Source of the DNA: a virus
Virus record (IMG/VR): IMGVR_UViG_3300033232_000078
Length of the DNA: 64,000 nt
Reading direction: 5' to 3' (one strand)
A model generated the notes under the pieces. That model saw nothing but the letters and a program-made list of their open reading frames with translations. It did no database searches and was not told the origin of the DNA. This document shows, piece after piece, positions 1,228 to 40,556 of this stretch (the stretch's first letter is position 1; the number at the start of each line of letters is the position of its first letter). The position numbers were made by a program, and so were the translations under genes.

Positions 1228-1246
1228 GTAGCCTCTGGTAGTACCA

Positions 1247-1279: not shown

Positions 1280-1300
1280 GTCTCACTAGGAGAACCCTGA

Positions 1301-5136: not shown

Positions 5137-5174
5137 TAACGGGGCGCATAATGCATCTTTATACGCCCCTTAAA
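5136..5174. promoter_or_regulatory. 39-bp palindrome family, site 1
   Basis: GGGGCGCATAA-TGCATCT-TTATACGCCCC (core 5141-5169), intergenic between polymerase and helicase-like gene. Confidence 0.8.
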
Positions 5175-5187
5175 AAGGATAACCTTA

Positions 5188-6384
5188 ATGGCACAACGCA
5201 AGACCAGGGACTGGCTTCAGGCCTTTATGCAGTACGCCTCCTACGGCGAAGCACCTTTGAAAATGTACTTTTGGGTCGGAGTCAGCACTATTGCGGGGGC
5301 ACTTCGCCGTAGGGTCTGGATCGACCAGAAGTACTTCCAATGGACTCCGAACTTTTATGTTATCTTGGTAGCCCCGCCTGGGATTGTTTCAAAATCCACC
5401 ACGGCTTCTGTGGGCATGAACCTTCTCAAGGAAGTCCCCGGCGTTACCTTTGGCCCGGATGTAGTGACTTGGCAAAAGCTTGTTGAGGATATGGGAAAGT
5501 CCACGGAAATGGTAATGAACCCTGAGACCGGCGAGTACATCCCAATGTCTTGCCTCACGGTGGCTTCGAGTGAATTCGGTACCCTGCTAAATCCACAAGA
5601 CCGGGAGATGGTAGACGTACTGGTGAGCCTTTGGGACGGTCAAGTCGGAACCTTTAAAAAGGCCACCAAGTCTTCTGGCAATGACTCCATCGAGAACCCT
5701 TGGATTAATATCATCGCCTGCACCACGCCGAGCTGGATCGCAGGCAACTTTCCCGAGTACATGATCGGCGGAGGCTTTACGAGTCGCTGTGTCTTTGTGT
5801 ATGCTGCCCATAAGCGCCAGTTCGTAGCCTACCCCGCTGACCACGTTCCAGAGGAATTCCTGGCCCAACGTGCTGCCCTGATTCATGACCTTGAGATTAT
5901 CTCTACCCTGGTAGGCGAGATGGAGCTTGACTCGGAGGCCAAATCCTGGGGTGAGCAGTGGTACCAGAACCACTGGACGGCTAAGCACCAGCATCTATCC
6001 CCTGACCAGTTCGGCGGATACCTCGCCCGGAAGCAGACCCATATCCATAAGCTCGCTATGATCTTCGCCGTTAGCGAATCCGATGAACTCGTCATTCACC
6101 GCCGGCATCTGGAAAAAGCCGCTGACATGGTTGACGCCCTCGAAGACGACATGCCTTACGTCTTCGACAAGATCGGCCGAACGCAAAGCACCCGGGCGCT
6201 GAATGACCTGTGCGAAATCGTAGCAGCCTATTCCCCCATCACACAACAAGACCTGTACCGGAGACTGAGCCGCCAGTGTACCTTTAAAGAATTCGCAGAC
6301 ATTCTGCAAAGTGCCATATCCGCGGGCTTCATCACCATCAAGCAGCAAGGCACCGAGACACTTGTCTCAGCAAAAAGGAGTTAA
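5188..6384 (+). CDS. DUF3987-like P-loop NTPase (putative replicative helicase), without a primase domain
   Basis: NFYVILVAPPGIVSKST (Walker A-like), SSEFGTLL, LVSLWDG, FTSRCVFVY motifs typical of DUF3987/YfjI-like proteins. Confidence 0.7.
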   Translation: MAQRKTRDWLQAFMQYASYGEAPLKMYFWVGVSTIAGALRRRVWIDQKYFQWTPNFYVILVAPPGIVSKSTTASVGMNLLKEVPGVTFGPDVVTWQKLVEDMGKSTEMVMNPETGEYIPMSCLTVASSEFGTLLNPQDREMVDVLVSLWDGQVGTFKKATKSSGNDSIENPWINIIACTTPSWIAGNFPEYMIGGGFTSRCVFVYAAHKRQFVAYPADHVPEEFLAQRAALIHDLEIISTLVGEMELDSEAKSWGEQWYQNHWTAKHQHLSPDQFGGYLARKQTHIHKLAMIFAVSESDELVIHRRHLEKAADMVDALEDDMPYVFDKIGRTQSTRALNDLCEIVAAYSPITQQDLYRRLSRQCTFKEFADILQSAISAGFITIKQQGTETLVSAKRS

Positions 6385-6385
6385 A

Positions 6386-6595
6386 ATGAAGACCTTCCAT
6401 AATACCATCACCCAGCTCGGATACTGTTGCCCGACCGAGTTCTTCTTGAAAAACGCAGGTATCCCGCACAAGGAATTAGCCGAGACCCTCGACCTGGCGC
6501 CTCGAACGATCCGCTTGCATAAGCAAATCGTCCAAGACGAAAGTGAGTGTCCCGGCCACGAGTCCTGTCTTAAAAGGATTCCCCAACATCCTTGA
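6386..6595 (+). CDS. Small helix-turn-helix protein with Cys residues
   Basis: HKELAETLDLAPRTIRLHK HTH-like segment; AGGAG RBS; last gene of the + arm. Confidence 0.6.
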   Translation: MKTFHNTITQLGYCCPTEFFLKNAGIPHKELAETLDLAPRTIRLHKQIVQDESECPGHESCLKRIPQHP

Positions 6596-13418: not shown

Positions 13419-13433
13419 AGCAGTTCCTTTTTA

Positions 13434-14537
13434 TTAGTTGCCGAATTTCTCGTTAGCTCTGCGCTGAATCTCTGCGAGCGGTACATTCGGATTCGCGGCC
13501 TTTGCGCGTTGAATCCAGTCAGCCTTTTGGGCTGTCGTTGCCTTGGTGCCACCCCGGCCAGTCGCAGGCGTCACCCCACCTTGCTGCCGACCTTTAATCA
13601 GCCGGTCAGCTTCTGCCAGCAAAGCATTCCGCTCATCATCATCCTCAGTCAGCTCAGCCAGTTTCAGCAAATCCGCGGCGCTGTTAGTCTTGCTGGTGCT
13701 TTGCACTCCAAGAGTGGCTTGGGCAATCCGCTGGTCATAAGCCGCATCCGTTTCCCCGGCTTCCTTGGGATTCGCCCGGCGCACGAGTTCCTCCACATCC
13801 CGCTTGGCTTGCCCCGCCGCAGGGATCTTATTGGCGTTGATACGGTCAGTTTTGACCCGCTCATTCCGGGCCCAGATTGCACTTTCCTTGTCTTTCTTGG
13901 TGAGTTCCCACGCCGCCTTCAGGTTCCCGTTTTGAAATTCTTGCTCAACCAGTTTAGCATCTTCAACAAGACCTTTGCGCTTAAGGTTTGCGATACCGAG
14001 TTCAATTTCCTCAATAGCTTGCCCACGGGTTTTCGCATAGAAGTTATTCGAAGCTTCAGCTTTTTCAGCATCGGCAGTACCTTTACGAATATCCAATTCA
14101 TGCTTTTGATCCTCCATCCCTTGCTTGCGTTGCTTGTCCCTGGCATCCAGCTGGTTCTGCTTCAACATCTGGTTCGTCATCACCCCAGTCGCTGCGGCAT
14201 TTCCGAATTGCTGTCCGACGGATTGCCCAGGCTGACGCCCCTGCAGCAGCTTCAGCCCAACCATCATCATGATATCCTTGGCATTCGGCTGTGCCATCAG
14301 CCCGTCCAGTAAGGTCCGCCAACCCTGCTTGCGTTGCTCCAGCTCCGCTGGGTCCTGGGTAGGTTGTTGCGGCATAGCAGTACCTTGCGCACCTGCACCT
14401 TGGGGGGCCACCTCAGGCATACTGGGCAACGGCGCAGGCACGGCGCCCCCTTGCGGCATCCCCGGCACATAGGGCATTTGCTGGGGCTGAGCCTGCCCTT
14501 GCTGTGCCTGCATGATAATATCTTGAAAGTTAGCCAT
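13434..14537 (-). CDS. Putative DNA ejection protein (Q/P-rich N-terminus, helical C-terminus)
   Basis: Position between pilot-like gene and giant ejection gene; composition; AGGAA RBS. Confidence 0.65.
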   Translation of the reverse strand: MANFQDIIMQAQQGQAQPQQMPYVPGMPQGGAVPAPLPSMPEVAPQGAGAQGTAMPQQPTQDPAELEQRKQGWRTLLDGLMAQPNAKDIMMMVGLKLLQGRQPGQSVGQQFGNAAATGVMTNQMLKQNQLDARDKQRKQGMEDQKHELDIRKGTADAEKAEASNNFYAKTRGQAIEEIELGIANLKRKGLVEDAKLVEQEFQNGNLKAAWELTKKDKESAIWARNERVKTDRINANKIPAAGQAKRDVEELVRRANPKEAGETDAAYDQRIAQATLGVQSTSKTNSAADLLKLAELTEDDDERNALLAEADRLIKGRQQGGVTPATGRGGTKATTAQKADWIQRAKAANPNVPLAEIQRRANEKFGN

Positions 14538-14542
14538 GATGC

Positions 14543-15076
14543 TTATCTCCCGTAAAGCAGTTGCGCCAGCGTCGGGCGACCCTGTTGGGCTTGTGCCTGA
14601 AGCATTTGCGGATCACGCACTGAGGTACCGCCCTGTAGGCTTGGCGGATTCGGCGCACGGGGCTGCCCCTGACCCTGGTTCTGACCTTGACCCAGTAACT
14701 GCATCATCTGCATAGCCTGCAAGCCAGCGCCCATTGCATTTCCACCTTGTCCGAACTCCAGCGGAGCCGCCGGCGCCTGTTGCATCCCAGGATCAGGTTG
14801 TGCCATCCCAGGAACCTGACTCATTTGGGGAGGCGGTACCGGGGTCAGTGCACTTCCATCCGGACTCGGTTGCATTGGGACCTGCCCAGGAGCCCCGGCC
14901 TGTTGAAGCATCCCCGAGAAGCTGCCCGGCGCGCCCGGAACCTGGCTCATTTGTGGGGCACCCTGACGCCCGACCTGCGCCAGCAATTCCGGGGGAGGTG
15001 CACCTTTGTTGGCAAGCATATCCACCAGGGATTCCCGATTTTGGGGTTGTGTCAGTTGATTCATCCAATCCATCAT
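14543..15076 (-). CDS. Putative ejection protein, low-complexity Q/P/G/M-rich
   Basis: Position in ejection cluster; GGAG RBS. Confidence 0.6.
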   Translation of the reverse strand: MMDWMNQLTQPQNRESLVDMLANKGAPPPELLAQVGRQGAPQMSQVPGAPGSFSGMLQQAGAPGQVPMQPSPDGSALTPVPPPQMSQVPGMAQPDPGMQQAPAAPLEFGQGGNAMGAGLQAMQMMQLLGQGQNQGQGQPRAPNPPSLQGGTSVRDPQMLQAQAQQGRPTLAQLLYGR

Positions 15077-15088
15077 TTTCGTCTCTCC

Positions 15089-16000
15089 TTATCCAAGTAA
15101 CGCACCAATAACTCCGCCGGCTACCGCACCCCAGGGACCGCCAACACTAAAGCCCGTAGCTGCACCACCTATGGCACCTCCCAAGCGGTTCCTCGGCGCT
15201 CCTGGCTGGGTTGTCGTTGTGGTCCCTTGACTCGACCCTCCGCCATAGACAAGGTTCGCCATGTTGTTGAGGGGCGCCCATTGTGAGTTGTATCCCCACA
15301 TCGCCGCGTCAGATTCGTAGTTCGCATTAGCCTGCTGCAAATCTTCTTTCTGACCACCGACGCTCGACAGCCAGTTAACCGGCAGCATCCCAGTCTTCAG
15401 GGCTTCCGGCGCAAACATCAAGGTTCTGGCAAAGGTATCCTGACCCTTGTCGTAGGCCGCCGTATACATCTTGCTCGAGACATCCCCGACTTCCTGCGCA
15501 TACCGGCCGGCTGCAATGCCCTCGGCAACCCCTTGACGGCTGGAGCCAAACTGCCCAGCATCCACGCCGCCATCCCGAATCTGGCTCATTACGCCGCCAG
15601 AATCAGTATAGCTCTGGGTGATCGGTCGGATTGCACCTTCGACTGCCTTCGCCAGATACGGATTATTGTCCACATCCATCGAGGTGGTCAAGCCATAATT
15701 AACCCCTTGATTGATCTGGTCGATACCTTGCTGAGCGCCAAAAGCATTCTGCACGGCTAGGTTCTGAGCAGCCAAACTTTCCGGGCTAAAGGGAACGGGT
15801 TTCGCGCCCGGATAGGGGGAATTCGCAATCTTCGGCGCCGTTGTGTTGTATACCCGCAGCGCCTCGTCCATCACCTGGGTTCGGCGCGCAGCCTCTTCAG
15901 GTGAATAATTTAGCGTGGTCGAGGTACTCGTGGTGCTACCCCCGCCGCCATTAAAGCCCGGACGCCGCAGCCACCTTCTATGCTTTTCTGCTCCGTACAT
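15089..16000 (-). CDS. Putative DNA pilot/ejection protein (P22 gp7-like position)
   Basis: N-terminal GGGGSTTSTSTT, internal GQFGSSRQGVAEG, Gly-rich hydrophobic C-terminus GGPWGAVAGGVIGALLG. Confidence 0.7.
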   Translation of the reverse strand: MYGAEKHRRWLRRPGFNGGGGSTTSTSTTLNYSPEEAARRTQVMDEALRVYNTTAPKIANSPYPGAKPVPFSPESLAAQNLAVQNAFGAQQGIDQINQGVNYGLTTSMDVDNNPYLAKAVEGAIRPITQSYTDSGGVMSQIRDGGVDAGQFGSSRQGVAEGIAAGRYAQEVGDVSSKMYTAAYDKGQDTFARTLMFAPEALKTGMLPVNWLSSVGGQKEDLQQANANYESDAAMWGYNSQWAPLNNMANLVYGGGSSQGTTTTTQPGAPRNRLGGAIGGAATGFSVGGPWGAVAGGVIGALLG

Positions 16001-16003
16001 AGT

Positions 16004-16438
16004 TTATACTCCTGTCGGAAATCTGATAATATCGTATACTTTTTGAGAGCCGAAGCGACGATGATATCGCGTCATCTCGGGATGGGTCCAGGCCTCAAGA
16101 TACGCGGCTCCGTTGACTCTGGCCCAGTTTGCTACATATCCCATAAAGCGCACGATGAACTTTTCAAAGCCAGCGCCAGCAGCGACCACGACCCGGATAA
16201 CCTTGAATTGGGGATATTCCACATTCTCAGTTATCATACATCCGGTCACCTGCCCATCTGTACGGCCGACGAACAGGTGAAACTTTTCATTAGCAAAACC
16301 AATCGGGAAGTCGGACAGGGCTAACTCTCCTTGCATTTTCGGAAGCACATGCGCCACGAATCCTGCCACCAAGGGCCATTGCGCCAACGCGTCTTGCCCT
16401 ACATGGTACGAAATTTCAAGCTTCATAGCTTTACCCAC
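16004..16438 (-). CDS. GNAT-fold acetyltransferase-like virion assembly protein
   Basis: Position between nozzle and pilot genes, like T7 gp13/P22 gp14; ANWARVNGAAYLEAWT pattern; start may be 16429. Confidence 0.55.
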   Translation of the reverse strand: MGKAMKLEISYHVGQDALAQWPLVAGFVAHVLPKMQGELALSDFPIGFANEKFHLFVGRTDGQVTGCMITENVEYPQFKVIRVVVAAGAGFEKFIVRFMGYVANWARVNGAAYLEAWTHPEMTRYHRRFGSQKVYDIIRFPTGV

Positions 16439-16671
16439 ACAGCAGAGCTAAACACATAAACGCCTCGGCCACTCCCCGGGTTCCAGCTTGTACCATCGGC
16501 AAAAACCACCAGACCTTCGCGCGGCTTCCCCGGCGCACTGTAACGCTCCACCAGCTGCACTGAGTCAAACGTCCGAGCTTCCAGGTCAAGTGCAAGCCTC
16601 TGAAGTTCGGATTCCACAAAAAGCCTGAGGCTTGCTAAATCCCCTTGCGGGGGTGTCCCTGGAACAAACAT
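16423..16671 (-). CDS. Hypothetical virion protein
   Basis: Tightly packed between nozzle and GNAT genes; P..G.VVFADGTSWNPGSG.GVY motif. Confidence 0.6.
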   Translation of the reverse strand: MFVPGTPPQGDLASLRLFVESELQRLALDLEARTFDSVQLVERYSAPGKPREGLVVFADGTSWNPGSGRGVYVFSSAVWVKL

Positions 16672-16674
16672 GCT

Positions 16675-18246
16675 TTAATACCTCCCGCCGCCCTGCACCA
16701 AAAAGTCCATCGCTTCGAGTCTCCAGGTAGCATTCCCGCTTCCCGTGATCCTCCATGAAATATACCTTCCATTACGACCCATGCATAGTTCTGCATTCGT
16801 CCCGACAACATAGGGTTGAACCTCGCCCCAGTCAATCGGATCATTCAGGTTCATTTGCACGCCGATCTGGAACTCGAGCTGGGTGCCGTTCGCTGCGAGA
16901 ATCTTCGGGCGGAGCTTGCTGATATGCTTCACTGCATCAGCAATATCCACGTTCTTCGGATCGGCGAAGTCAAAGCTTTGATGCTCCAACAGGGTCTGCA
17001 TAGCGTCAGCCCCAATGGTTTCCCCCACATTCAGGGTGTAAAGTTTCTGTCCTATGGTATTCGCCACAACGCCGACTTTTCCGCGCAGGGTGAACGCCGA
17101 CCAGCCTTCCCCGTCACCATCCCAGTTCCCGCTATCCGAGTCCCAGCTTGCATCCGTCGGGTCAGGTGTAAATGCCGAGATAAGACTCTGCGCGAAAGGC
17201 AAGTCCCGCTTTGCCCAGGTATTCGTTTTCCAGTTCCACACATAAGCCAGGTTGGGCGGATACCCTGAGGTAGTCGAGATGCAAATCCAGACTTCTCGTT
17301 CAGCCGGGAACACCGCCAGATACGACTTGTGGTAATCCGATACTGAGATATTTGAGAACAGGTCCCGCCGCCATTTCTTGTTGATGATGGATTCCGCTTG
17401 CGTTCCGTCAAAGGCAATCACATCGTCAGTCGTCAGTACGATATGCCGGCCCAGTACCTCAACCATACAGTTCCGCCCCAGAATGCCGCTTTCCCGAAGC
17501 ACCGGACGGAACTTGAAGATAAAGGGCGCCCCGACAAACTGCATCAGATACGTCGCATCTTCCTTATACACGACGAAATTATCCCCCATTGCGAGGCCAT
17601 CAATGATGTGCCCAGGGGTATCCGACAGCGGGGTGTCACCGGCGTCCTTGGTCGGGTCAGTCACATCCCAGGTGCCAGGTACACTGCCCGGATTCGCTGG
17701 ATGGCTCCACAGTACGTTGTGCGGAAACCCCAAGGTTCCATCGCTATGGTTCATCGCTACCAGGTAGTTTTTGAACGGGCGCAATGCTTGGGCGGTATAG
17801 CCAATCGGCCAGTTCGACAGGTCCTTGAACAGGCCAGTAGACTTATCAAACTCCTGGGGGGCATCCGTGCCATTATTCAGGAAAGGAATGCCATGCAGCA
17901 CACCGCCGGTCCAGACGTTACCAACCCCAGCCGAATATGGCGTCAGCACACCAAGAGGCTGCCGAGTCGCATCCGAGTATACCCCACTCAGGTAGTAATG
18001 AATCGCGGCTTGCCCCGCAAGAAACAACCTCTTAACGCCGTCGTTTTCCTGCGAGGATAGCAAGTAGTAAGGCGCAATCGGCGGGGTGCCGTATTGCTCA
18101 GCCATACCACCGGCCTTCTCAATAGCCCCATCCAGAAACCTGACGTTCCTGGCATCCGTGAAAACTCCCGGCGGAACTGCCTGGGCCGGCAAATCCCCAG
18201 CGCTACCGCCATTGGCGTCAAACTGATTAATGCGAAACCACGGCAT
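16675..18246 (-). CDS. Tail nozzle / tail tubular protein B-like (P22 gp10-like)
   Basis: 523 aa, beta-rich, VLWSHPANP...WD, GIL...C.V motifs; position ahead of ejection genes. Confidence 0.75.
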   Translation of the reverse strand: MPWFRINQFDANGGSAGDLPAQAVPPGVFTDARNVRFLDGAIEKAGGMAEQYGTPPIAPYYLLSSQENDGVKRLFLAGQAAIHYYLSGVYSDATRQPLGVLTPYSAGVGNVWTGGVLHGIPFLNNGTDAPQEFDKSTGLFKDLSNWPIGYTAQALRPFKNYLVAMNHSDGTLGFPHNVLWSHPANPGSVPGTWDVTDPTKDAGDTPLSDTPGHIIDGLAMGDNFVVYKEDATYLMQFVGAPFIFKFRPVLRESGILGRNCMVEVLGRHIVLTTDDVIAFDGTQAESIINKKWRRDLFSNISVSDYHKSYLAVFPAEREVWICISTTSGYPPNLAYVWNWKTNTWAKRDLPFAQSLISAFTPDPTDASWDSDSGNWDGDGEGWSAFTLRGKVGVVANTIGQKLYTLNVGETIGADAMQTLLEHQSFDFADPKNVDIADAVKHISKLRPKILAANGTQLEFQIGVQMNLNDPIDWGEVQPYVVGTNAELCMGRNGRYISWRITGSGNATWRLEAMDFLVQGGGRY

Positions 18247-18248
18247 GA

Positions 18249-18854
18249 TTAAGTACCTGGGAAGTAGTCACTTAGCCGCTGCGCAATAAAGTACGCCCAG
18301 GCCTCACGACGGTTTGCGGTAAAGGCGCCAGTATGGTCTTTGTAAGCCATCCCAGGGCCGAACTTTGTGGCGTTGTGGCTGCAGTAATTCAAATGCTCCA
18401 CCGCATTATAGGGGGTCTTAGCAATCCCTACCTTACCCTGGTCGCCCCACATATGCATAGGTAAAAACCTCGCCAAATCTACCCAGCGATCCTGCTCGCT
18501 ATACACTGTCTCGACATGGGGAACGGGCGCAACTCTCCAGCGATCCAGCGCCGGATTAAAGTTAATAATCATATCGGGTCTGGCGCCCAGAGTTTTAGCC
18601 GCCATATAAGCAATCGCCGCGCCGTTGCTGTGCGTAACCCAGACTTCCCGTTCGCCCATAGTATTGGCTCGTGCAAATGCCAAGCGCTTTGCCACCCCAG
18701 GGTTTTTGAACCGGGCTGCCCAGAACCCCATGAAGCCATACGAAAACACTGAGACCAAGGCATCCGGCATAATCTTCTGAAGCACCGGGGCAAAGGCCGC
18801 AATGTTGTTGTTACCCTCGGGGGAATGAATCCCATGAATCAAGCGAATAATCAT
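18249..18854 (-). CDS. Alpha/beta-hydrolase (esterase/lipase-like) in the lysis cassette
   Basis: LIHGIH oxyanion segment, THSNG nucleophile elbow, candidate Asp (QDRWV) and His (DHTG); ATG overlaps endolysin TGA at 18854. Confidence 0.65.
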   Translation of the reverse strand: MIIRLIHGIHSPEGNNNIAAFAPVLQKIMPDALVSVFSYGFMGFWAARFKNPGVAKRLAFARANTMGEREVWVTHSNGAAIAYMAAKTLGARPDMIINFNPALDRWRVAPVPHVETVYSEQDRWVDLARFLPMHMWGDQGKVGIAKTPYNAVEHLNYCSHNATKFGPGMAYKDHTGAFTANRREAWAYFIAQRLSDYFPGT

Positions 18855-19237
18855 CAATAACTCCAGATTGTTGGGTGCGCGTGCTTCCGACTCATCCCAA
18901 GATGCAGGAACCGCCCTGCACCTTTTTGCTGAACCCCGACGCGCAGGATACCTTGATTCAAGGCGATCAGCAGAATCAAATGTGCCTCGCCGCCACGCAC
19001 AGCAATATCCGCGCACATGCCAGTCGTATGCTCGCCGACTGTGGATTTCTTCGCTTCAATCGGATGGGTTCGATCCCGATAGCCGGAACTGATTTTCATC
19101 GGATGCCCGAAGGCTTTACGAATCTGATACAGCTTATCCATGAATTCCTTTTGCATAAGACACTTTCCCGTGTGCTTACATTTGAATTCGTTCTCCGTAA
19201 AGTACGGCGCGTACGCACTCCAGTCAGTTACAATCAT
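18854..19237 (-). CDS. Endolysin, peptidase M15 (M15A/M15_3) family
   Basis: FTENEFKCK, ISSGYR, EHTTGMCADI, FLHLG Zn-peptidase motifs. Confidence 0.88.
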   Translation of the reverse strand: MIVTDWSAYAPYFTENEFKCKHTGKCLMQKEFMDKLYQIRKAFGHPMKISSGYRDRTHPIEAKKSTVGEHTTGMCADIAVRGGEAHLILLIALNQGILRVGVQQKGAGRFLHLGMSRKHAHPTIWSY

Positions 19238-19323
19238 TTCGCATCTCCCTTAAATAAAGACCCCAACCACAGCCCCAGCAGAATCCCAATATCAATCGCG
19301 ATCCAGAAGCCGAACCAGCACAT
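19234..19323 (-). CDS. 29-aa hydrophobic peptide (MCWFGFWIAIDIGILLGLWLGSLFKGDAK), not in ORF track
   Basis: Exactly fills the gap between flanking genes; ATGA overlap with endolysin start; one TM-length hydrophobic stretch. Confidence 0.55.
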   Translation of the reverse strand: MCWFGFWIAIDIGILLGLWLGSLFKGDAK

Positions 19324-19324
19324 T

Positions 19325-19627
19325 TCAGGGCTTCCCTAGAAGGCCGTTATTCGCACCCCCTATCCGCTCGACAATTCGATCCATCTTGCGATTGATCTCC
19401 CGGAGCTCCTCACGTAACACCGTCCGGTCTTCTCGAACGTCCCTGGAAAGTGCCTGAATCTCGGAGTCATGCCGCTGGACGGTTGACTTGAGATCCGAAC
19501 CCCAGGAGAATATCGACAACACTAAAGCAATCGTAGTCAGGATATGCGCTATGTTGATGGTGGTATCGACGCGGAATCTGGTCTGGTCGATCGTCCGGCG
19601 TTCCACGGTTTCGTGATCTTCGAGCAT
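19325..19627 (-). CDS. Single-TM plus coiled-coil membrane protein (holin-like or inner-spanin-like)
   Basis: Hydrophobic IAHILTTIALVLSIFSWG then coiled coil; upstream of endolysin. Confidence 0.6.
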   Translation of the reverse strand: MLEDHETVERRTIDQTRFRVDTTINIAHILTTIALVLSIFSWGSDLKSTVQRHDSEIQALSRDVREDRTVLREELREINRKMDRIVERIGGANNGLLGKP

Positions 19628-19629
19628 AT

Positions 19630-20211
19630 TCAGGCTTTCTTCAGGGTTAGTCCGGCTAGAAGTTGCTCCGGATTGGCTAAAAGATCGGCGAGTGCCGGGG
19701 CATTTTGCTGCATATTCATCAGAGATTCAACGCTGCCATTTCCCTGGGCCTGGAGTTGTTGTTCCAGCCTGGCCTGGAAATGCACGGCTTCTTCAGCCTC
19801 AAACTGCTCTCGGGTGTACTTGGGGAATTTCTGGAACTCCGCATAAAGACAATCAAGCTCACGCAAGGCATCATTCAGAAGCTTATTGATCCAGTTTCGG
19901 CTTTCCCGATCCTTAGCAATTTCAATCACAAGCCTACGCTTGTCGAAGCCCCCAGTATCAGCCTGAGCAAGTTTATACTCTTTTTCCTCGATATCAATAT
20001 CCGCGAGTTGCAATGCAAAAAGATTCTCCTTCACCGCACGGATTTTGGAAAACATCCGTAAGCCGATTGCCCGGTAGGCGCGCGCCGGAGTTAACTGCGA
20101 CGCAACCACAAAGGTCTTGTTCTGGAAATCGCTGTTCTCAAAAGGGATATCGAAGAAAGCTGTATCCAGCTCCTCCAAAACCCCGGATAAACCTTGTAAT
20201 GTAAGATTCAT
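19630..20211 (-). CDS. Helical/coiled-coil protein next to the propeller gene (possible fibre chaperone)
   Basis: Overlap-coupled to 20208-21125; charged helical composition. Confidence 0.55.
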   Translation of the reverse strand: MNLTLQGLSGVLEELDTAFFDIPFENSDFQNKTFVVASQLTPARAYRAIGLRMFSKIRAVKENLFALQLADIDIEEKEYKLAQADTGGFDKRRLVIEIAKDRESRNWINKLLNDALRELDCLYAEFQKFPKYTREQFEAEEAVHFQARLEQQLQAQGNGSVESLMNMQQNAPALADLLANPEQLLAGLTLKKA

Positions 20212-34045: not shown

Positions 34046-34551
34046 ATGTGTACCTTGAAACCTGAATGCGGATTGTCCACGTCACTGGCGAGCACCACCC
34101 GCTCGGGAAACACGACCGAGGGATCGTACCATTTCACCACTTCGCAGACTTCGATTTTCCAGAGATGTTGGGGAAACATCGTGCGCAGGACAGGTGCGTA
34201 GAGCCTGCGTGTCTGCCACCAAGCCAGCCCAACGTGCTGGTACTTCACCTCAATGATGGTAATCACGCCCCTCGCCAAGTCCCAGATCAAGCCGTCCGGC
34301 TGACACCAGCGCCACTTCCCTTCATCGAAGAATTTGATCCAGGGGGACGCCAAATAATGCTCACCATAAAAGGATTCCAGATATGCATGGACCTTCTTTT
34401 CATAGCGGATGCCCTCAGCCCGGCGCCCCTTGTACTGGCGCTTCTTGAGCTGGGGCGGGACGCAGAAGTGAGCTGCGCGCGGAGCCTGGGCCGGACGGAA
34501 GCCGGCGGGCACCAGGAGGTCAGGCTGCGCCATCAGCACTCGGCAATGCAC
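34033..34551 (-). CDS. PD-(D/E)XK nuclease-like protein between TerS and TerL
   Basis: QPDGLIW...IIEVKY motif. Confidence 0.6.
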   Translation of the reverse strand: MHCRVLMAQPDLLVPAGFRPAQAPRAAHFCVPPQLKKRQYKGRRAEGIRYEKKVHAYLESFYGEHYLASPWIKFFDEGKWRWCQPDGLIWDLARGVITIIEVKYQHVGLAWWQTRRLYAPVLRTMFPQHLWKIEVCEVVKWYDPSVVFPERVVLASDVDNPHSGFKVHIWRP

Positions 34552-35065
34552 TTGGTTCTTGCACCACCTCGACCAGTTCGCCTTGGATGGCGGCCTTGAA
34601 CTGACCTTGCGCCTTCATCACATTCCGGGCGGCGTCCAAGTCGTCTTGGCTCAGCAGAAACACATTTTGCTGATTGACCTGAAGGCCCCCTTGGTTGGCG
34701 CCGAAGCCGTTCCGGGCGCTGGCGGGGGCGTAGCCCATCCGGTGCAGAGCCTTGTCCGCCGCATCCAGAATATATTCCGGGTCCTCCGAGTCCGCGATTT
34801 TTTCCGCGAGCCGGTCGAGCGCGATGTCCGCGACCACCTTGAGCTTCTCCGGGATGCTCATCGCACAGTGGTTATGAATATTCTGGAGCTTCTCCTGGAA
34901 TTCGGCCTGGAAAACATCGCTGTGGATGACGGTACTGAGCCAGGCCTGGCTGACGCCGAAATGGTCGGCGCACTGGCGCAACGGCTTGTCCGGATTCAGC
35001 ACCATCCAGTTCATTATCATTGAATGTTTATGGGAGATTTTTTGAATTTGGGCGGACTCAGCCAT
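34520..35065 (-). CDS. Putative terminase small subunit (N-terminal HTH)
   Basis: First gene of the late arm; LRQCADHFGVSQAWLSTVI HTH; GGAG RBS. Confidence 0.65.
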   Translation of the reverse strand: MAESAQIQKISHKHSMIMNWMVLNPDKPLRQCADHFGVSQAWLSTVIHSDVFQAEFQEKLQNIHNHCAMSIPEKLKVVADIALDRLAEKIADSEDPEYILDAADKALHRMGYAPASARNGFGANQGGLQVNQQNVFLLSQDDLDAARNVMKAQGQFKAAIQGELVEVVQEPSALPSADGAA

Positions 35066-35235
35066 GGCGTTGTCTCCGAAACGGTTTAGGTATGCATACT
35101 GTATGCCCGGCGGGTTTGGGAGGCAACTACTGGATTTATTAACGGGACCGCTAATTCCACTTTAACTCTAGAAATCCGTAAGTGCATTCCCCCCTGGTAT
35201 GCGGGGTGCGAAGGGGGGCGGTACGGTATGCACGC

Positions 35236-35248
35236 TAAGTCGTTGATT
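35236..35248 (-). promoter_or_regulatory. IHF consensus site
   Basis: Minus strand AATCAACGACTTA matches WATCAANNNNTTR. Confidence 0.5.
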
Positions 35249-35269
35249 TGTAACGGATTTTTCCCGGGC

Positions 35270-35297
35270 TTGCATTCCAGCCCAGTCGGCGTATTAT
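35270..35297 (+). promoter_or_regulatory. Putative sigma70 promoter for the first early gene
   Basis: TTGCAT-16bp-TATTAT. Confidence 0.45.
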
Positions 35298-35422
35298 ATA
35301 CATATGGACGCCAGGAACAGGTTACCAGGTCCCAGGGTCCAGGTTGGACCGGCGAAGCTGCATAGGGCAGTAGAGTCGAGGTGCATTATGCATCGAGCAG
35401 TATTCATTTTGGAGATTTTACC

Positions 35423-35920
35423 ATGAGTGCAAAACAGAAGTTTCTCTCGAAAGTCACGCCCAGCGATATTGGGGGCAAGGACCAAGTAGTTGCCTTTGTT
35501 CTCGGCAATGGGTTGCGGGTTGAGGCGGACTTAAAGCAAGTCTCGCCGGACATGATAACGCAGCTCGCATTGCACGGGCTCAGCCAGAAGGTAGGCGACG
35601 CAAGCGCCGGGTTCTCGAAACTGCAAGACTTTTCTGGTGCCTTCGGCGCGATGCAGCAGGTAGTGGATAATCTGTACAGCGGCCAATGGAGCACCCGAGG
35701 CCAGGGCGGCGGACTCAGTGACTTGGTGCAGGCAATCTGTGAACTGCGCGGGGTTGAGCCGGATGCAGCTCAGTCGGCGATCGAAGCGATGGATGAGGAG
35801 CAGTTGAAGAGGGTTACCAGCCATCCTCAAGTCAAAGCCAAGATTGCGGATATCAAAGCAGCAAGGCTGACCAAGGCCGCAGAAGGCGCGGCGGATCTGG
35901 ATGACTTGTTAGACCTGTAG
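35423..35920 (+). CDS. Early protein A, paralog of 38571-39072
   Basis: GGAG RBS before ATG 35423; followed by a strong terminator. Confidence 0.8.
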   Translation: MSAKQKFLSKVTPSDIGGKDQVVAFVLGNGLRVEADLKQVSPDMITQLALHGLSQKVGDASAGFSKLQDFSGAFGAMQQVVDNLYSGQWSTRGQGGGLSDLVQAICELRGVEPDAAQSAIEAMDEEQLKRVTSHPQVKAKIADIKAARLTKAAEGAADLDDLLDL

Positions 35921-35947
35921 TCCCTCGTCCCTCGTCCCAGGTCCCAT

Positions 35948-35977
35948 ACCCCCAGAGCAATCTGGGGGTTTTTTTTT
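35948..35977 (+). terminator. Rho-independent terminator
   Basis: ACCCCCAGA-GCAA-TCTGGGGGT followed by a T run. Confidence 0.9.
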
Positions 35978-36012
35978 ACGCCTTATGCATATGCCTTGCC
36001 GAGGCGGGGCGG

Positions 36013-36068
36013 GCTCTGGGAGATTGGCGCTTGGATCTGGGAGCTTGGAGCTTGGAGCTTGGCGCTCA
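36013..36068 (+). repeat. Eight degenerate tandem heptamers (three exact GAGCTTG)
   Basis: GCTCTGG GAGATTG GCGCTTG GATCTGG GAGCTTG GAGCTTG GAGCTTG GCGCTCA. Confidence 0.7.
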
Positions 36069-36140
36069 ATGCATTCACGAGGCCGGGCTGTGGCCCGGAT
36101 TCTCGCAGGTCTTGCATATGTGCTCGCAGGGGGTAGGTAA

Positions 36141-36179
36141 TTGGCGGGGCGGATAACAAAGTATTATGCGCCCCCACAA
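36141..36179. promoter_or_regulatory. 39-bp palindrome family, site 4
   Basis: TTGGCGGGGCGGATAA-CAAAGTA-TTATGCGCCCCCACAA. Confidence 0.8.
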
Positions 36180-36410
36180 TACCCTACGGCGCGTCCAAAC
36201 CATAGGGATGCCCTACCATACCCAATTCCTCCGAACGCCGCATGGCGACCCCATCCCGGGCGCGGTAGCCCCATTCCCAACACCCCTACCCCCCCACATT
36301 AGCCCCATCCCGAAATACTATATCCCTGATTCATTCTAACCCGCATTGAGGCCCAATGATAAGCATTCATAGCAATGGTGCAATGATTCGGAGTACCCCC
36401 CACACTCCCA

Positions 36411-36449
36411 TTCACGGGGCGCATAATAAATCATTATACAGCCCGCCAA
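36411..36449. promoter_or_regulatory. 39-bp palindrome family, site 5
   Basis: TTCACGGGGCGCATAA-TAAATCA-TTATACAGCCCGCCAA. Confidence 0.75.
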
Positions 36450-36644
36450 TTCTTCAGCTCATGGTCAATGCACTGTATTTAAGGTTCTAAGTTTTTTTTT
36501 TTATAAACATACTAACTAACTACCCCAGGCTACACATTAACGGGGCGCAGAATGGCCGGGGGAAAGGGGGTATGGCAAAATCATTGCACCATTACAATCA
36601 ATGCATTCCAATGCTCCCCATTGCCTTTCAGCCCACATCAAGGC

Positions 36645-36673
36645 TTGACAACCTTACAAAATCATACCACAAT
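36645..36673 (+). promoter_or_regulatory. Early sigma70 promoter P1
   Basis: TTGACA-accttacaaaatcatac(17)-CACAAT. Confidence 0.8.
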
Positions 36674-36704
36674 CCCAAATGCAGCACTCACAAAAGGAAC
36701 CCGG

Positions 36705-37181
36705 ATGAAAATATACTCAAAAGACACACCGATGTGGCAAGCGTATGAGGAATTATTCCTCAACACTACAGCGCCAGACATATTTAATGAAGTATCCCAA
36801 CACTTTGAGCCCGCCCCAATACAAATCCCTTGCCAAACCAAGGGCGAGGCCCTGAATCTGGCGATGGGGCTCAATGCATGTCAAATTCAAGACTTTATGG
36901 AGAAAGGCACTCCGAAGAGTTTTATCACAAAGAGTGCCAAGGCCAAGATACTACCCAACGGCGAGCCTGTGCTGGAAATAAGCGTAAGCTATCGGCATCG
37001 ACCTAAGCCCCGGAAGGTCGACAGTGCCTTGGGCAAAATCCTCAAACAAAGCCAAGATCAGAGCAAGGAAACGCAAGTGCAACCAGCAGGCTCTGGCCGG
37101 GGGGAAATCACGGAAGAGCAGCGCATTCAGCATCAAGAAGCTGAGGATGCTAAAATCAGAAAACTAATGGGGCTAGAATAG
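36705..37181 (+). CDS. Hypothetical early protein
   Basis: AAGGA RBS before ATG 36705, downstream of P1. Confidence 0.7.
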   Translation: MKIYSKDTPMWQAYEELFLNTTAPDIFNEVSQHFEPAPIQIPCQTKGEALNLAMGLNACQIQDFMEKGTPKSFITKSAKAKILPNGEPVLEISVSYRHRPKPRKVDSALGKILKQSQDQSKETQVQPAGSGRGEITEEQRIQHQEAEDAKIRKLMGLE

Positions 37182-37182
37182 C

Positions 37183-37416
37183 ATGGCCCGGCTTGATACT
37201 GCACTCACATATACAGAACTTGCCTTGATGATACGAGCCAAGTACGCCAGCCGGGCTGTCCCAAGCGACGTTATGCATATGCAATTTGATGACTATGCGG
37301 CAACGGTTTGCCAGGTCTGGGACGAAACCGACGGCAAGCTTCATGCAATAATCAAGCGCAACGTCAAGGGCAACATCAGCATCTTGTTTAAAAGCCATCC
37401 AGCCAAAGGAGAATAA
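37183..37416 (+). CDS. Hypothetical early protein
   Basis: Tightly packed in operon. Confidence 0.6.
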   Translation: MARLDTALTYTELALMIRAKYASRAVPSDVMHMQFDDYAATVCQVWDETDGKLHAIIKRNVKGNISILFKSHPAKGE

Positions 37417-37419
37417 GCC

Positions 37420-37752
37420 ATGCCAAAGCCAAAGCCAAAGCCAAAGCCAAGCGAATTGCAAATCGCAACCCAAGCTTACAACGGTATCCGGTGGCAACTC
37501 AAAGGCAGCGCCAAAATAGTCCAAAGACTCATGCATAGGGTCCCCGAGCAGGGCTTGCTAATCAGCCCTGGTGCAACCCCCTGGCCGGAATACCCCAAGC
37601 AACTCAAAGCAAAGCTATGCAACGCGCTCGAATCCGCCCAGAACCAGCTCGAATATTGCGAATACCTGTGCAAAATGCTCAGCCAATCCCACAGTGAAGC
37701 CTATGCACATACCCAGAAACTAACCAAAACCAAGGAGACTCAAGATGATTAG
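37420..37752 (+). CDS. Hypothetical early protein with N-terminal (PK)n
   Basis: AGGAG RBS; (GCCAAA)4 at 37422-37445. Confidence 0.65.
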   Translation: MPKPKPKPKPSELQIATQAYNGIRWQLKGSAKIVQRLMHRVPEQGLLISPGATPWPEYPKQLKAKLCNALESAQNQLEYCEYLCKMLSQSHSEAYAHTQKLTKTKETQDD

Positions 37753-38167
37753 GAAACTCATACTAGGCTTAATGCTTAGCTCAATCCCAACGCTCGCGCC
37801 CGCCGACCCACTAATCGAGTACCAGCTCCCAGACCTCGGTACCAGCGCCAGCCCCCAGTACCAGATCACTACAACCGGGAAGCTCCAGGCCGGGTATCTG
37901 GTCCTGCATACCCTGGATTGGATGCAGACCCTCACCATCGCAAGGAACCCGGACCGATGGCACGAAACCAACCCGATTCTCGGCAATCACCCCTCGGTGG
38001 CCCAGGTCAACCAGTACTTTCTGGCAACCGGCATCGCACACACCCTGATTACCGCGCACCTCCCCCAGCGCAAGGCCCGGCTCTGGCTCGGGGCCACCAG
38101 CATTATGCAACTCGGCTTCGTGATGCATAACCGGAACCTCGGCATCGGCCTCAACGTCAAATACTAA
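37745..38167 (+). CDS. Exported/membrane protein with signal peptide and ExNPILG motif (DUF5658-like)
   Basis: MIRKLILGLMLSSIPTLAPA signal-like N-terminus; LDWMQTL..., HETNPILG; AGGAG RBS. Confidence 0.65.
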   Translation: MIRKLILGLMLSSIPTLAPADPLIEYQLPDLGTSASPQYQITTTGKLQAGYLVLHTLDWMQTLTIARNPDRWHETNPILGNHPSVAQVNQYFLATGIAHTLITAHLPQRKARLWLGATSIMQLGFVMHNRNLGIGLNVKY

Positions 38168-38180
38168 AGGAATATGCATA

Positions 38181-38438
38181 ATGCAAACCAAGCTTGAAAG
38201 CCTGCTGGAATCCGGCGTCAACATAATCATAGGGTATCTGATTGCCCTCGCCAGTCAAATCCTAATCTTCCCCCTATACGGTATCCAGATCACTCTGAGC
38301 ACCAACCTCTGGATCGGGCTATGGTTTACCCTGGTAAGCCTCGTCCGGTCGTACCTTCTGCGCCGGTACTTCAACCAGCGAGTGCATAAAGCCATTCATA
38401 ATCTGATTAAGGAAAACTCAAATGCATCAAATGCATAA
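38181..38438 (+). CDS. Two-TM phage membrane protein
   Basis: SLLESGVNIIIGY...QILIFPLYG...FTLVSLVRSYLLRRYFN, a widespread phage membrane-protein pattern. Confidence 0.75.
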   Translation: MQTKLESLLESGVNIIIGYLIALASQILIFPLYGIQITLSTNLWIGLWFTLVSLVRSYLLRRYFNQRVHKAIHNLIKENSNASNA

Positions 38439-38472
38439 GCCCAACAGCCCCCCACAAAAGCTCGTATAATGC

Positions 38473-38501
38473 TTGACAACCTTACCGCAACCATGCATTA
38501 T
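38473..38501 (+). promoter_or_regulatory. Early sigma70 promoter P2
   Basis: TTGACA-accttaccgcaaccatg(17)-CATTAT. Confidence 0.75.
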
Positions 38502-38537
38502 GCATATTCGGTTCCGGGAAATGCATATTCGGTTCCG
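38500..38537 (+). repeat. 17-bp direct repeat ATGCATATTCGGTTCCG x2
   Basis: Copies at 38500-38516 and 38521-38537. Confidence 0.85.
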
Positions 38538-38570
38538 ACTCACCCTCAACTTTTTTAAGGAGCATCACGA

Positions 38571-39072
38571 AATGACTGCAGAAACCCAAACCGCCGCTGA
38601 AACCAAGAAGCCCAAGTTCTGCGACAAATCCAGCGAAGGCACGACCGCCTCGTTTACCTTCGGCGACGGCACCGTGCTGTCCCTGGACGTGTCCAACCTG
38701 ACCGAAGAAATCCAAACCGAGCTGATGCTCCACGGCGCCCTGCAGAAAATCGGTGACAGTTATGCTGGTGCGGCTGGCGACTACGCGTATGCCAAAGCCC
38801 AGGCCGAAAAGGTCATCCAGAATCTGGTCGATGGTGTCTGGAAGGCCGCCCGTGAAGCCGGCGAGTCCAAGCCCAAGTCCGGCGAACTGGTGCAGGCCCT
38901 GGCGGAACTCAAAGGCCTCGAGGTCGAAGCCGTTGCCGCAGCCGTCGAGGCTATGGACGAAGAGCGCCGCAAGGCCGTCCGCAGCCACCCTGCGGTCAAG
39001 GCGAAAATCGCTGAACTCCGCGCCCGCAAGGCCAACGAGGCGGCTGCCAAAGCCGGCGCACTGGACTTCTAA
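38571..39072 (+). CDS. Early protein B, paralog of 35423-35920
   Basis: AGGAG RBS before MTAETQ (ATG about 38572); strongly C/G-ending codons; followed by terminator. Confidence 0.8.
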
Positions 39073-39135
39073 GCAACCTTTGCTTTGCCTCCCTCGATAG
39101 GAATAAGCATACCCAATGCGATTTCCTACCGCCTT

Positions 39136-39172
39136 AGCCCCGCGATGCCCTATGCATCCTGGGGCTTTTTTT
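39136..39172 (+). terminator. Rho-independent terminator
   Basis: AGCCCC..GATGC-loop-GCATC..GGGGCT followed by a T run. Confidence 0.8.
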
Positions 39173-39206
39173 CGGCCACTATACAGCATTCCAGCGAATA
39201 ATTTGC

Positions 39207-39235
39207 TTGACAACCTTGCCGGTGGGTGGGACAAT
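39207..39235 (+). promoter_or_regulatory. Early sigma70 promoter P3
   Basis: TTGACA-accttgccggtgggtgg(17)-GACAAT. Confidence 0.8.
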
Positions 39236-39239
39236 TCAA

Positions 39240-39278
39240 TTGTCGGGGCGCATAATTAATTTTTACCCGCCCCGCCAA
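39240..39278. promoter_or_regulatory. 39-bp palindrome family, site 6 (covers predicted start site of P3)
   Basis: TTGTCGGGGCGCATAA-TTAATTT-TTACCCGCCCCGCCAA, beginning 4 bp after the -10 box. Confidence 0.75.
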
Positions 39279-39311
39279 AACCCAGAACCTGACACATACA
39301 AGGAGCCGAAA

Positions 39312-39506
39312 ATGCAAAAACCCAGCCAAAAGAATCCCATCATCCAAGTCCTCATGACCCGCGACGACCTCAGCTTTGACGACGCGTGCGAGCAGTTCAC
39401 CAAGGCCCAAGACGAATTCAATTCCGGCGCATACGGCACTGATGCAGAAGATTGCCTCGCGCAGGAATTTGGCCTCGAGCCGGATTACATTTTCGACTTT
39501 CTTTAA
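39312..39506 (+). CDS. Small acidic early protein
   Basis: AGGAG RBS; C-terminal EFGLEPDYIFDFL. Confidence 0.7.
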   Translation: MQKPSQKNPIIQVLMTRDDLSFDDACEQFTKAQDEFNSGAYGTDAEDCLAQEFGLEPDYIFDFL

Positions 39507-39539
39507 GGAGCCCATCTACCACCATAACCACCTTGCACG

Positions 39540-39571
39540 ACCAGTACAGAACCAGTACAGAACCAGTACAG
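39540..39571 (+). repeat. 11-bp tandem repeat ACCAGTACAGA x3
   Basis: Intergenic, copies at 39540, 39551, 39562 (last lacks the final A). Confidence 0.85.
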
Positions 39572-39593
39572 CATCAGCACCCGGGAGCCTCAA

Positions 39594-40100
39594 ATGCCAC
39601 AAGAACCTAAAGATCTCGACATTGATCAGCGGTTAAAGCCAGACGCCCTTGATCTGCTCGCAAGTATCCTCTCCGACTTCGGCACCCGCCCGAAAAAGGA
39701 ATCGGCGAAGAAACCCAGCCTTACCAATACCTCCTTTGCTGCACCACCAAAAAGTATCGCCAAGCAAATCGCCTTGCTGCGAACGCGCCAAACTATCTGG
39801 AAACCCATCGGGCGCGCAGTATTCATTCGCACCCAAGAATGTCAGTGTTGCGGCGAAACCACAGAGTTCGTGGAGAACGAACTTTATCTCCTTGAAGGTG
39901 GCAAATCCCAGTCCCGCTGGTATCGCCGCGAAGCCCATATGCCGGAACTCGACTGCCCCAACCTCCCTATCGAAGTTCATTGTAACCCGGAACCCCTCCC
40001 TGTTACAGTTTGTGCAAAATGCACCAGTGACAAACCCACGAACCAGCTTCTTGACTTGTTGGCCTCCCCTCAGCTTTGTTTGGAGTTTCCTGATGACTAA
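39594..40100 (+). CDS. Hypothetical protein with CxxC...CxxC zinc-binding pattern
   Basis: ECQCCG and VCAKC; GGAG RBS. Confidence 0.7.
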   Translation: MPQEPKDLDIDQRLKPDALDLLASILSDFGTRPKKESAKKPSLTNTSFAAPPKSIAKQIALLRTRQTIWKPIGRAVFIRTQECQCCGETTEFVENELYLLEGGKSQSRWYRREAHMPELDCPNLPIEVHCNPEPLPVTVCAKCTSDKPTNQLLDLLASPQLCLEFPDD

Positions 40101-40311
40101 GCCACACATCACCCGCTTCAATCGCGGCAAGTGGAATGCAATCCTAGCATGCATCTGTCCCCAGATTCTGGGCTGCATTTCCCCTCGGATGTGGCGCAAA
40201 TATGCCACTATGCCAGGGCAGCTCACCCATCGCCTTGTCTGGTCCACCCAGAGCAAAAAGGTAAACCCCCAAAACCTCACTGTTAATCCATACTACAAGG
40301 AGAATGCATAA
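40093..40311 (+). CDS. Hypothetical protein
   Basis: GGAG before ATG 40093; TAATG coupling to next gene. Confidence 0.5.
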   Translation: MTKPHITRFNRGKWNAILACICPQILGCISPRMWRKYATMPGQLTHRLVWSTQSKKVNPQNLTVNPYYKENA

Positions 40312-40556
40312 TGCCCAGAGCTAAATCCAGAGCCCGTGCGCGTCAAGCCGGCGGCACTCACTACAAGCATATGACGATCCAGCCTTGGGATGTGATTGAT
40401 ACTTGGCCTATCGAGCAGCAAATCGGGTATCACCGGGGCACGGCACTGGCCTATATTATGCGCGCCGGCTCCAAAGGACCCAGGCTTGAGGAATTCCAAA
40501 AAGCCGAGCATCACCTCCAAAAGCTTTGTGAAAATCTCATCAAGGAGCCTGTATAA
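40311..40556 (+). CDS. DUF3310 (SaV-like) protein
   Basis: GGTHYKHMTIQPWDVI...GTALAYIMRAGSKG...QKAEHHL motif. Confidence 0.8.
   Translation: MPRAKSRARARQAGGTHYKHMTIQPWDVIDTWPIEQQIGYHRGTALAYIMRAGSKGPRLEEFQKAEHHLQKLCENLIKEPV

Follow-up and report, generated by a model that had tools for sequence, protein, structure and literature searches.

The early control region of an uncultivated podophage-like virus, taken from the IMG/VR virus record IMGVR_UViG_3300033232_000078, carries a cluster of the palindromic hexamer ATGCAT that is real, non-random and statistically robust. The cluster sits on early control elements, namely the −10 of promoter P2, the +1 of promoter P1, leaders, the spacers between Shine–Dalgarno (SD) sequences and start codons, and terminators. 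The selected object is a strand-symmetric double-strand word, about WATGCATW (W is A or T), with graded tolerance of mismatches. We suggest, with a probability of roughly 0.4, that these ATGCAT words are the binding sites of a putative symmetric DNA-binding regulator of the early transcription units. The window, which is the whole 64-kb stretch of DNA that was analysed, is one 44,082-bp genome read 1.45 times; the offset is exact, with 19,918 of 19,918 bases identical. Positions above 44082 duplicate 1–19918, and counts over the whole window count that part twice (42 ATGCAT matches correspond to 32 unique sites).

Sixteen of the 32 ATGCAT sites of the genome lie in 35092–39157, and every one of the 16 coordinates reported in a first-pass annotation of this DNA is an exact match. 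Two further sites, at 40149 and 40304, bring the number to 18 in the early region, 35066–40320, which makes up 12% of the genome (binomial P = 2e-9). The annotation had estimated that about one site per 4 kb would be expected by chance, and this was fair, since the expectation for 35092–39157 is 0.8 with an order-0, 1.9 with an order-1 and 2.5 with an order-2 Markov model. When all hexamers of the early region are scored against a local order-2 model, ATGCAT is the most over-represented of them (18 observed, 2.83 expected, z = 9.0). None of 5000 simulations reached 18 copies under order 1, and none of 5000 did so under order 2. The enrichment thus survives the modelling of di- and trinucleotide composition that had been proposed as a check on it. 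When an order-3 model is fitted to the early region, and so already absorbs the tetramers of the motif, 18 copies are reached in 13 of 5000 simulations. Outside the early region, ATGCAT is at background (14 sites, with 10–12 expected).

The excess is present in both non-coding and coding DNA. The non-coding part of the early region (1626 bp) has 10 sites, where 0.4–1.9 are expected. The coding part has 8, compared with 2.8 in synonymous-codon shuffles of the same proteins (P = 0.0005), and the pentamer ATGCA occurs there 21 times, compared with 11.9 in the shuffles. The excess of coding ATGCAT over the shuffles shows that the word is selected at the nucleotide level. A coding-frame artefact was ruled out, as the coding sites occupy all three frames.

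The sites are given below together with the early promoters P1 and P2, the gene G terminator and the early genes; strand is given where the feature has one. L039 is the nearest relative having an early region, and L051, L043 and G001 are further relatives.

35092–35097: ATGCAT within the divergent control region, in the leftward terminase operon's 5′ leader; kept in L039 (4124), absent in L051
35381–35393: near-palindrome GTGCATTATGCAT (TGCAT-T-ATGCA) in the gene A leader; contains ATGCAT 35388
35423–35920, plus strand: gene A
35985–35995: ATGCATATGCC, 7 nt past the T-run of the gene A terminator
36069–36074: ATGCAT within the 784-bp non-coding stretch 35921–36704
36601–36606: ATGCAT, 44 bp upstream of the P1 −35
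36645–36673, plus strand: early promoter P1, TTGACA-17-CACAAT; ATGCAG at 36679 is at about +1
36705–37181, plus strand: gene B
36874–36879: ATGCAT within gene B
37183–37416, plus strand: gene C
37273–37284: ATGCATATGCAA within gene C, where it reads M-H-M-Q; kept in the L039 homologue at 7767
37420–37752, plus strand: gene D
37531–37536: ATGCAT within gene D
37745–38167, plus strand: gene E
38123–38128: ATGCAT within gene E; ATGCAA lies 18 bp upstream
38174–38184: ATGCATAATGC, occupying the SD-to-ATG spacer of gene F; non-coding
38181–38438, plus strand: gene F (DUF7220)
38422–38436: ATGCAT-CAA-ATGCAT at the gene F 3′ end, 42–51 bp upstream of the P2 −35
38473–38501, plus strand: early promoter P2, TTGACA-17-CATTAT; −35 block conserved in L039, L043 and G001
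38493–38505: perfect 13-bp palindrome ATGCATTATGCAT, spanning the P2 −10; two ATGCAT sites
38500–38516 and 38521–38537, plus strand: two 17-bp direct repeats in the P2 leader, each starting with ATGCAT
38572–39072, plus strand: gene G (paralogue of A)
39147–39172, plus strand: gene G terminator; ATGCAT 39152 lies in the stem-loop (39147–39165)
39312–39506, plus strand: gene H
39594–40100, plus strand: gene I
40093–40311, plus strand: gene J
40149–40154: ATGCAT within gene J; ATGCAA lies 13 bp upstream
40304–40314: ATGCATAATGC, occupying the SD-to-ATG spacer of gene K; gene J 3′ end, counted as coding
40311–40556, plus strand: gene K (DUF3310)

Three strong sigma-70-type promoters (36645, 38473 and 39207) share an extended −35 block of 15 bp, GCTTGACAACCTT(A/G)CC, at 36644–36660, 38472–38488 and 39206–39222. 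In all three, 17 bp separate the −35 from an nAnnAT −10. L039, L043 and G001 conserve the block, and ATGCAT words lie 42–55 bp upstream of the three TTGACA elements. There are two strong terminators, downstream of genes A and G. The placements singled out in the first-pass annotation are borne out: the copies said to bracket the P2 −10, at 38493 and 38500, overlap both edges of the CATTAT ending at 38501, the copy assigned to a terminator stem (39152) is within the gene G stem-loop, and, of the copies described as near start codons, 38174 fills the SD-to-ATG spacer of gene F, as the additional site 40304 does for gene K. The spacer-filling word ATGCATAATG is common to both of these gaps. Its upstream ATG opens the mini-open reading frames (mini-ORFs) MHNANQA (38174–38197, 7 codons) and MHNAQS (40304–40324, 6 codons), which overlap the true starts of genes F and K. 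A search of IMG/VR gave no exact match to the 17-bp P2-leader repeat.

The shape of the enriched word was obtained by comparing the frequencies of word variants between the early region and the remaining genome, the latter in sense orientation. Relative to this background, ATGCAT is enriched 9.5-fold, ATGCA[^T] 2.9-fold and [^A]TGCAT 2.7-fold, where [^T] and [^A] stand for any base other than T or A. ATGC[^A], [^T]GCAT and [^A]TGCA[^T] are not enriched (0.9–1.1-fold). A single mismatch is enriched at the two outer positions only (2.85-fold, P = 9e-6) and not at the inner four, and the flanking positions favour A or T. With both strands pooled, the top hexamer of the early region is TATGCA/TGCATA, with 26 copies where 4.5 are expected, and the counts on the sense strand are nearly equal (12 TATGCA and 14 TGCATA). 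The composite TGCAT-N-ATGCA occurs in 3 copies, with 0.17 expected. Such symmetry, together with the tolerance at the outer positions, would be expected if double-stranded DNA were read by a two-fold symmetric reader, but not if the signal acted in RNA. Furthermore, an all-or-none enzyme target would explain the enrichment of outer mismatches less well than graded protein binding does.

The nearest named relatives of the window phage are Microcystis phage Mel-JY34 (terminase 45% identical), Vibrio phage VS-ABTNL-3 and the spring-water contig MW202489. Closer uncultivated relatives come from IMG/VR (L004–L035 and the complete 45.8-kb genome G001), from Logan assemblies (L039–L043 and L049/L050), from a Joint Genome Institute (JGI) metagenome contig (L048) and from a contig of a Porticoccaceae metagenome-assembled genome, or MAG (L051). 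L039 is 91% identical to the window phage in the gene G protein, 86% in the methylase protein described below, and about 80% in the DNA of shared genes. Its 6.7-kb early region contains 11 ATGCAT, where 3.3 are expected, and the remaining 13.7 kb contain 3. The top early hexamer is again TATGCA/TGCATA (22, with 4.3 expected), despite a largely different set of early genes. ATGCAT is kept in L039 at the start of the divergent region and directly past the gene A terminator (5110), in otherwise unalignable DNA; ATGCATATGCAA in the gene C homologue and the words around P2 and the gene G terminator are kept as well. The P2 leaders of other close gene G relatives carry the word at shifting positions, as ATGCATATGCA in L043 and as ATGCATATGCAT in L049/L050. 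L048 has no such word upstream and three pentamers downstream. In L037 (methylase 81%), ATGCATATGCAT (5744–5755) is at the SD-start position of the small gene preceding the methylase. ATGCATATGCA(T) recurs in unrelated contexts in the window phage, L039, L043, L049 and L037. Just past the gene G stop, L043 (about 805–840) and L048 (about 1365–1400) have an inverted repeat with an 11-bp stem, GAAGTATGCAC...GTGCATACTTC, which is composed of ATGCA/TGCAT words.

G001 (methylase 57%) has two ATGCAT genome-wide and none in the syntenic early region, Mel-JY34 has 2, and MW202489 has 1. Together, these three GC-rich genomes under-represent the word (5, with about 20 expected, P = 7e-5). No comparable clustered palindrome was found in the early regions of G001, Mel-JY34, MW202489 and VS-ABTNL-3, which rules out a general family trait. 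Since the word is enriched in L039 and the enrichment is absent in the distant relatives, the cluster is a trait of a narrow sub-lineage, maintained with site turnover, and not a family feature.

The window phage strongly avoids GGATCC (0, with 14–20 expected), GCATGC (2, with 17–21 expected) and ATCGAT (0, with 8–10 expected). CAGCTG and GGGCCC are low and AGGCCT is high, and L039 has the same profile. The Porticoccaceae MAG holding the contig with the 92% identical terminase shows the same tendencies, more weakly, at nearly equal G+C (400-kb sample; L061–L080). The shared profile suggests a shared host, different from the host of the ATGCAT-poor relatives. A Porticoccaceae-like gammaproteobacterium is thus a weak lead as the host, based on the MAG binning of a 4.9-kb contig. 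This MAG has several PF01555 methylases and under-represents ATGCAT (25 vs 48 in 400 kb), whereas the window phage and L039 do not avoid it.

We propose that the early region uses a cis-regulatory word, roughly WATGCATW, that is specific to the lineage and would be read on double-stranded DNA by a two-fold symmetric protein. We infer the binding of a protein, its identity and the direction of its effect. The likeliest reader would be a dimeric regulator, encoded by the phage or by the host, that would bind numerous sites, weak as well as strong, throughout the early units and modulate these units. Its likely effect would be the shut-off or timing of early transcription by the host RNA polymerase. 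The strongest composite sites would be the 13-bp palindrome on the P2 −10 with the P2-leader repeats, along with TGCAT-W-ATGCA, which is present in the gene A leader and the two SD-start spacers.

Several observations weigh against a symmetric regulator. A word of 6–8 bp is short for a specific operator, and no match to a helix-turn-helix (HTH), ribbon-helix-helix or other DNA-binding family was obtained among the early proteins. The conserved early protein represented by A and G gives a confident AlphaFold model (pLDDT, the predicted local distance difference test, of 85; 3 strands and 6 helices), and no structural match to it was found in the PDB, so a role as the reader is neither supported nor excluded. 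The clustering of adjacent sites beyond that due to their high density is not significant (P about 0.18), and cooperative pairing of sites was rejected, as adjacent gaps are no shorter than with random placement at equal density. The excess of coding ATGCAT in L039 is not significant (3 vs 2.2). In L051, a close relative with a terminase 92% identical, the early DNA (about 2 kb) contains a single ATGCAT, and therefore the feature turns over fast.

It is unlikely that the cluster has no dedicated function and is a by-product of short repeat modules, of recombination junctions between mosaic genes and of local drift. Sub-families of sites do share contexts of 11–17 bp (TCAATGCATTC, TTATGCATATGC, ATGCATAATGC and the 17-bp repeat), mosaicism in the early region is high, and the density of sites varies among close relatives, as in L051. 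However, the repeats are too short and too varied to account for 18 sites, and the excess over synonymous shuffles in unrelated genes, together with the symmetric mismatch pattern, points to selection on the word itself. A by-product would also not readily give the same top-ranked word in L039, where the early genes are largely different.

The first-pass annotation had read the cluster as a possible methylation switch written by a methylase that the phage encodes as a ParB fusion.

1404–2714, plus strand: gene for a fusion of ParB_N and N6_N4_Mtase domains, the proposed writer, whose link to the cluster is not supported

According to this reading, the enzyme would methylate ATGCAT, or the pentamer ATGCA, and the methylation state would time or silence the early promoters or mark self DNA. 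The cluster is indeed real, located on control elements and maintained at the nucleotide level; the attribution of its authorship to the ParB-methylase is not supported, and we regard such a switch as quite unlikely. The word is a palindrome of the typical methylase or restriction type, with the local excess beyond composition that a cluster of methylation sites would show (18 vs 2.8). The enzyme is an intact beta-class N6/N4 methylase, with DPPY at residues 236–239, QKP at 367–369 and FVGSGT at 391–396. The order of DPPY before FxGSGT had been recognised correctly; this YhdJ-type order, including QKP, is common to all beta-class enzymes, among them CcrM. The overlap of ATGCAT sites with a −10 element has a parallel in Dam-sensitive promoters, where GATC is placed in this way. 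That the window phage and L039 do not avoid ATGCAT while the candidate host MAG does is also in favor of a switch. Of the 14 sites outside the early region, two touch dispersed palindromes of the form 16-7-16 (P = 0.007), which may be ParB docking sites. Of the two overlaps described in the first-pass annotation, that of 5151 stands, since this site is inside one palindrome, whereas 12479 only adjoins another. The target assigned to YhdJ in the annotation agrees with the report that this enzyme methylates ATGCAT (PMC9239280).

However, the likeness of the phage enzyme to YhdJ is limited to generic motifs. Its identity to Escherichia coli YhdJ is 27%, through DPPY, QKP and FxGSGT only, and the segment between them is gapped. 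Scored with the YhdJ equivalog model NF008572 (NCBIfam), it reaches 70.2 bits, below the 292-bit cut-off, compared with 589.5 for E. coli YhdJ, and it matches CcrM (GANTC) about as well as YhdJ. A methylase is encoded, and no sequence evidence ties it to ATGCAT. Furthermore, orthologues of the ParB-methylase are present in the ATGCAT-poor relatives G001 (57%), Mel-JY34 and MW202489 (40%), and the segment from DPPY to QKP is well conserved across six aligned family members, including ATGCAT-poor ones. If the specificity is shared, the under-representation of ATGCAT in these relatives, at 40–57% identity, weakly suggests that the enzyme does not protect the word. In a methylation switch only exact target words would matter, whereas here the outer-mismatch variants and A/T flanks are enriched. 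Finally, in Salmonella, the loss of all YhdJ methylation barely alters transcription (PMC9239280).

The ParB part of the enzyme also does not point to ATGCAT. ParB/parS-type sites are palindromes of about 16 bp made up of HTH half-sites, and ATGCAT is a 6-bp word. The dispersed 16-7-16 palindromes are better candidates for ParB docking than ATGCAT.

Window 5136–5174, 12441–12479, 36141, 36411 and 39240: dispersed palindromes
L039 5241–5268 and 6024–6052: dispersed palindromes

The arms of these palindromes differ between the two phages (GGGGCGCATAA in the window, GGGGCAGATAA in L039). A putative recognition helix in the middle of the ParB-methylase also differs between them, a possible co-variation with the palindrome arms. 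It is conceivable, at long odds, that the ParB domain docks on the palindromes, three of which are in the early region, and that the fused methylase writes N6-methyladenine on the surrounding field of ATGCA(T). Early-promoter activity would then differ between parental genomes, which would be methylated, and newly replicated ones, which would not, and the cluster would be a phage-encoded, spatially targeted epigenetic timer.

It is equally improbable that the signal acts in RNA, with AUGCAU in early transcripts as the target of a processing nuclease or of a translational repressor, in the manner of T4 RegB or RegA. Every site can fall within a transcript, several are in 5′ leaders, and the two sites that fill SD-start spacers, making mini-ORFs of 6–7 codons, have a third such arrangement in L037. 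However, the enrichment is strand-symmetric, both for the pentamers ATGCA[^T] and [^A]TGCAT and for TATGCA and TGCATA, and the palindromy has no rationale for an RNA motif. Sites directly past terminator T-runs would be missing from terminated RNAs. An Rfam search gave no match above threshold, the sub-threshold NsiR1 hit being on a terminator only (21.6 vs 39 bits).

It is more doubtful still that a host orphan methylase or other host factor reads ATGCAT, coupling early expression to the state of the host, or that the sites are a decoy: the Porticoccaceae MAG matches the palindrome bias of the window phage and L039 and has several PF01555 methylases, but the host assignment comes from the binning of one short contig, no ATGCAT-specific host enzyme or reader was identified, and L051, from the same MAG, is not enriched.

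Other uses of the word were tried and rejected. ATGCAT is not a −35 element, as none of the hexamers 17 bp downstream of non-coding sites is −10-like. TGCATAAT as an extended −10 has no usable −35, and transcripts would begin inside genes. For a sigma-54-type TTGCA, there is no GG at the correct spacing. A Z-DNA reading, based on alternating purines and pyrimidines, is contradicted by the −1 flank, where C is disfavoured and T is preferred. The localized nick consensus of tf/LUZ24-type phages, which we take to be TACT/RTGMC, has no exact match in the window, and its one-mismatch matches are not concentrated in the early region.

In cluster A mycobacteriophages, the stoperators, which are the sites of the L5 gp71 repressor, are 13-bp, asymmetric, orientation-biased sites found genome-wide in a temperate phage. 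As in the early region studied here, there are many copies of one short word through transcription units, both close to promoters and within short non-coding gaps, and a single protein probably governs many units via such sites. However, the word here is 6–8 bp, symmetric, without an orientation bias tied to transcription, and confined to about 5 kb. The repressor is known there, whereas no recognisable repressor gene is present among the early proteins here.

Methylase-site switches are known for GATC in E. coli oriC with SeqA, in P1 pac and in the IS10 transposase promoter, and for GANTC in the Caulobacter ccrM promoter. The likeness is a local excess of a short palindromic word of methylase type on control DNA, including an overlap with a −10. 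In contrast, the cognate methylase and a methylation-sensing reader are known there. For the present cluster, no enzyme can be linked to ATGCAT, the sites extend over 5 kb and into coding DNA, and near-miss variants are enriched too. With YhdJ, an orphan beta-class adenine methylase of E. coli and Salmonella, the target is the clustered word itself, and the phage enzyme belongs to the same superfamily and has the same motif order; the differences are the failure in the equivalog model (70 vs 292 bits) and the N-terminal ParB domain. The early control region of phi29 embeds Spo0A boxes. In both cases, short sites around early promoters could couple early expression to a protein that the phage need not encode, and the presence of the sites depends on the host lineage, although here the sites extend into coding DNA. 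We know of no host factor with a WATGCATW site.

The gene content of the virus is arranged in two divergent arms. The rightward arm has the early genes of unknown function, then the ParB-methylase fusion, then a split family-A polymerase and a primase-helicase; the leftward arm has the terminase, portal and structural genes, including one for a 2282-aa virion protein. Early proteins A and G are paralogous (36% identical), each in its own promoter–gene–terminator cassette, and their family has at least 154 homologues in metagenomes. A search of JGI metagenome contigs did not find a close relative of gene G, and megablast of 34500–40500 against 50,697 phage records found no near-identical phage record.

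Some further features of the early region were seen. The long gene-poor stretch 35921–36704 after gene A (L039 4889–6362) is a possible origin or non-coding RNA region. It contains tandem repeats of GCTTGGA, a pair of the 16-7-16 palindromes, a long run of T with TACTAACTA, and islands conserved in L039 and L051. ATACTA has six copies in the genome, all of them in the early region (36315–40286) and often near gene ends or starts, where about 0.07 would be expected from the rest of the genome and 0.9–1.2 by local order-2 models. At the start of gene D, (PK)n is encoded by a GCCAAA repeat (5 copies, 37424–37450). The gap preceding gene I has an 11-bp repeat in three copies, ACCAGTACAGA (39540–39572).

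Phages usually purge short palindromes. The window phage does purge GGATCC, GCATGC and ATCGAT, yet it concentrates ATGCAT about nine-fold in its early control region, even against codon choice. The cluster points to an unrecognised layer of control in a widespread group of uncultivated podophages, in which the early genes are all of unknown function. The P2 region, which has the 13-bp palindrome on its −10 and two repeats in its leader, is compact enough to be tested directly. The discovery of a binder or of a modification would help to explain how early transcription is switched off in these phages, and the ParB-methylase fusions would gain either their first regulatory target or a clean negative.

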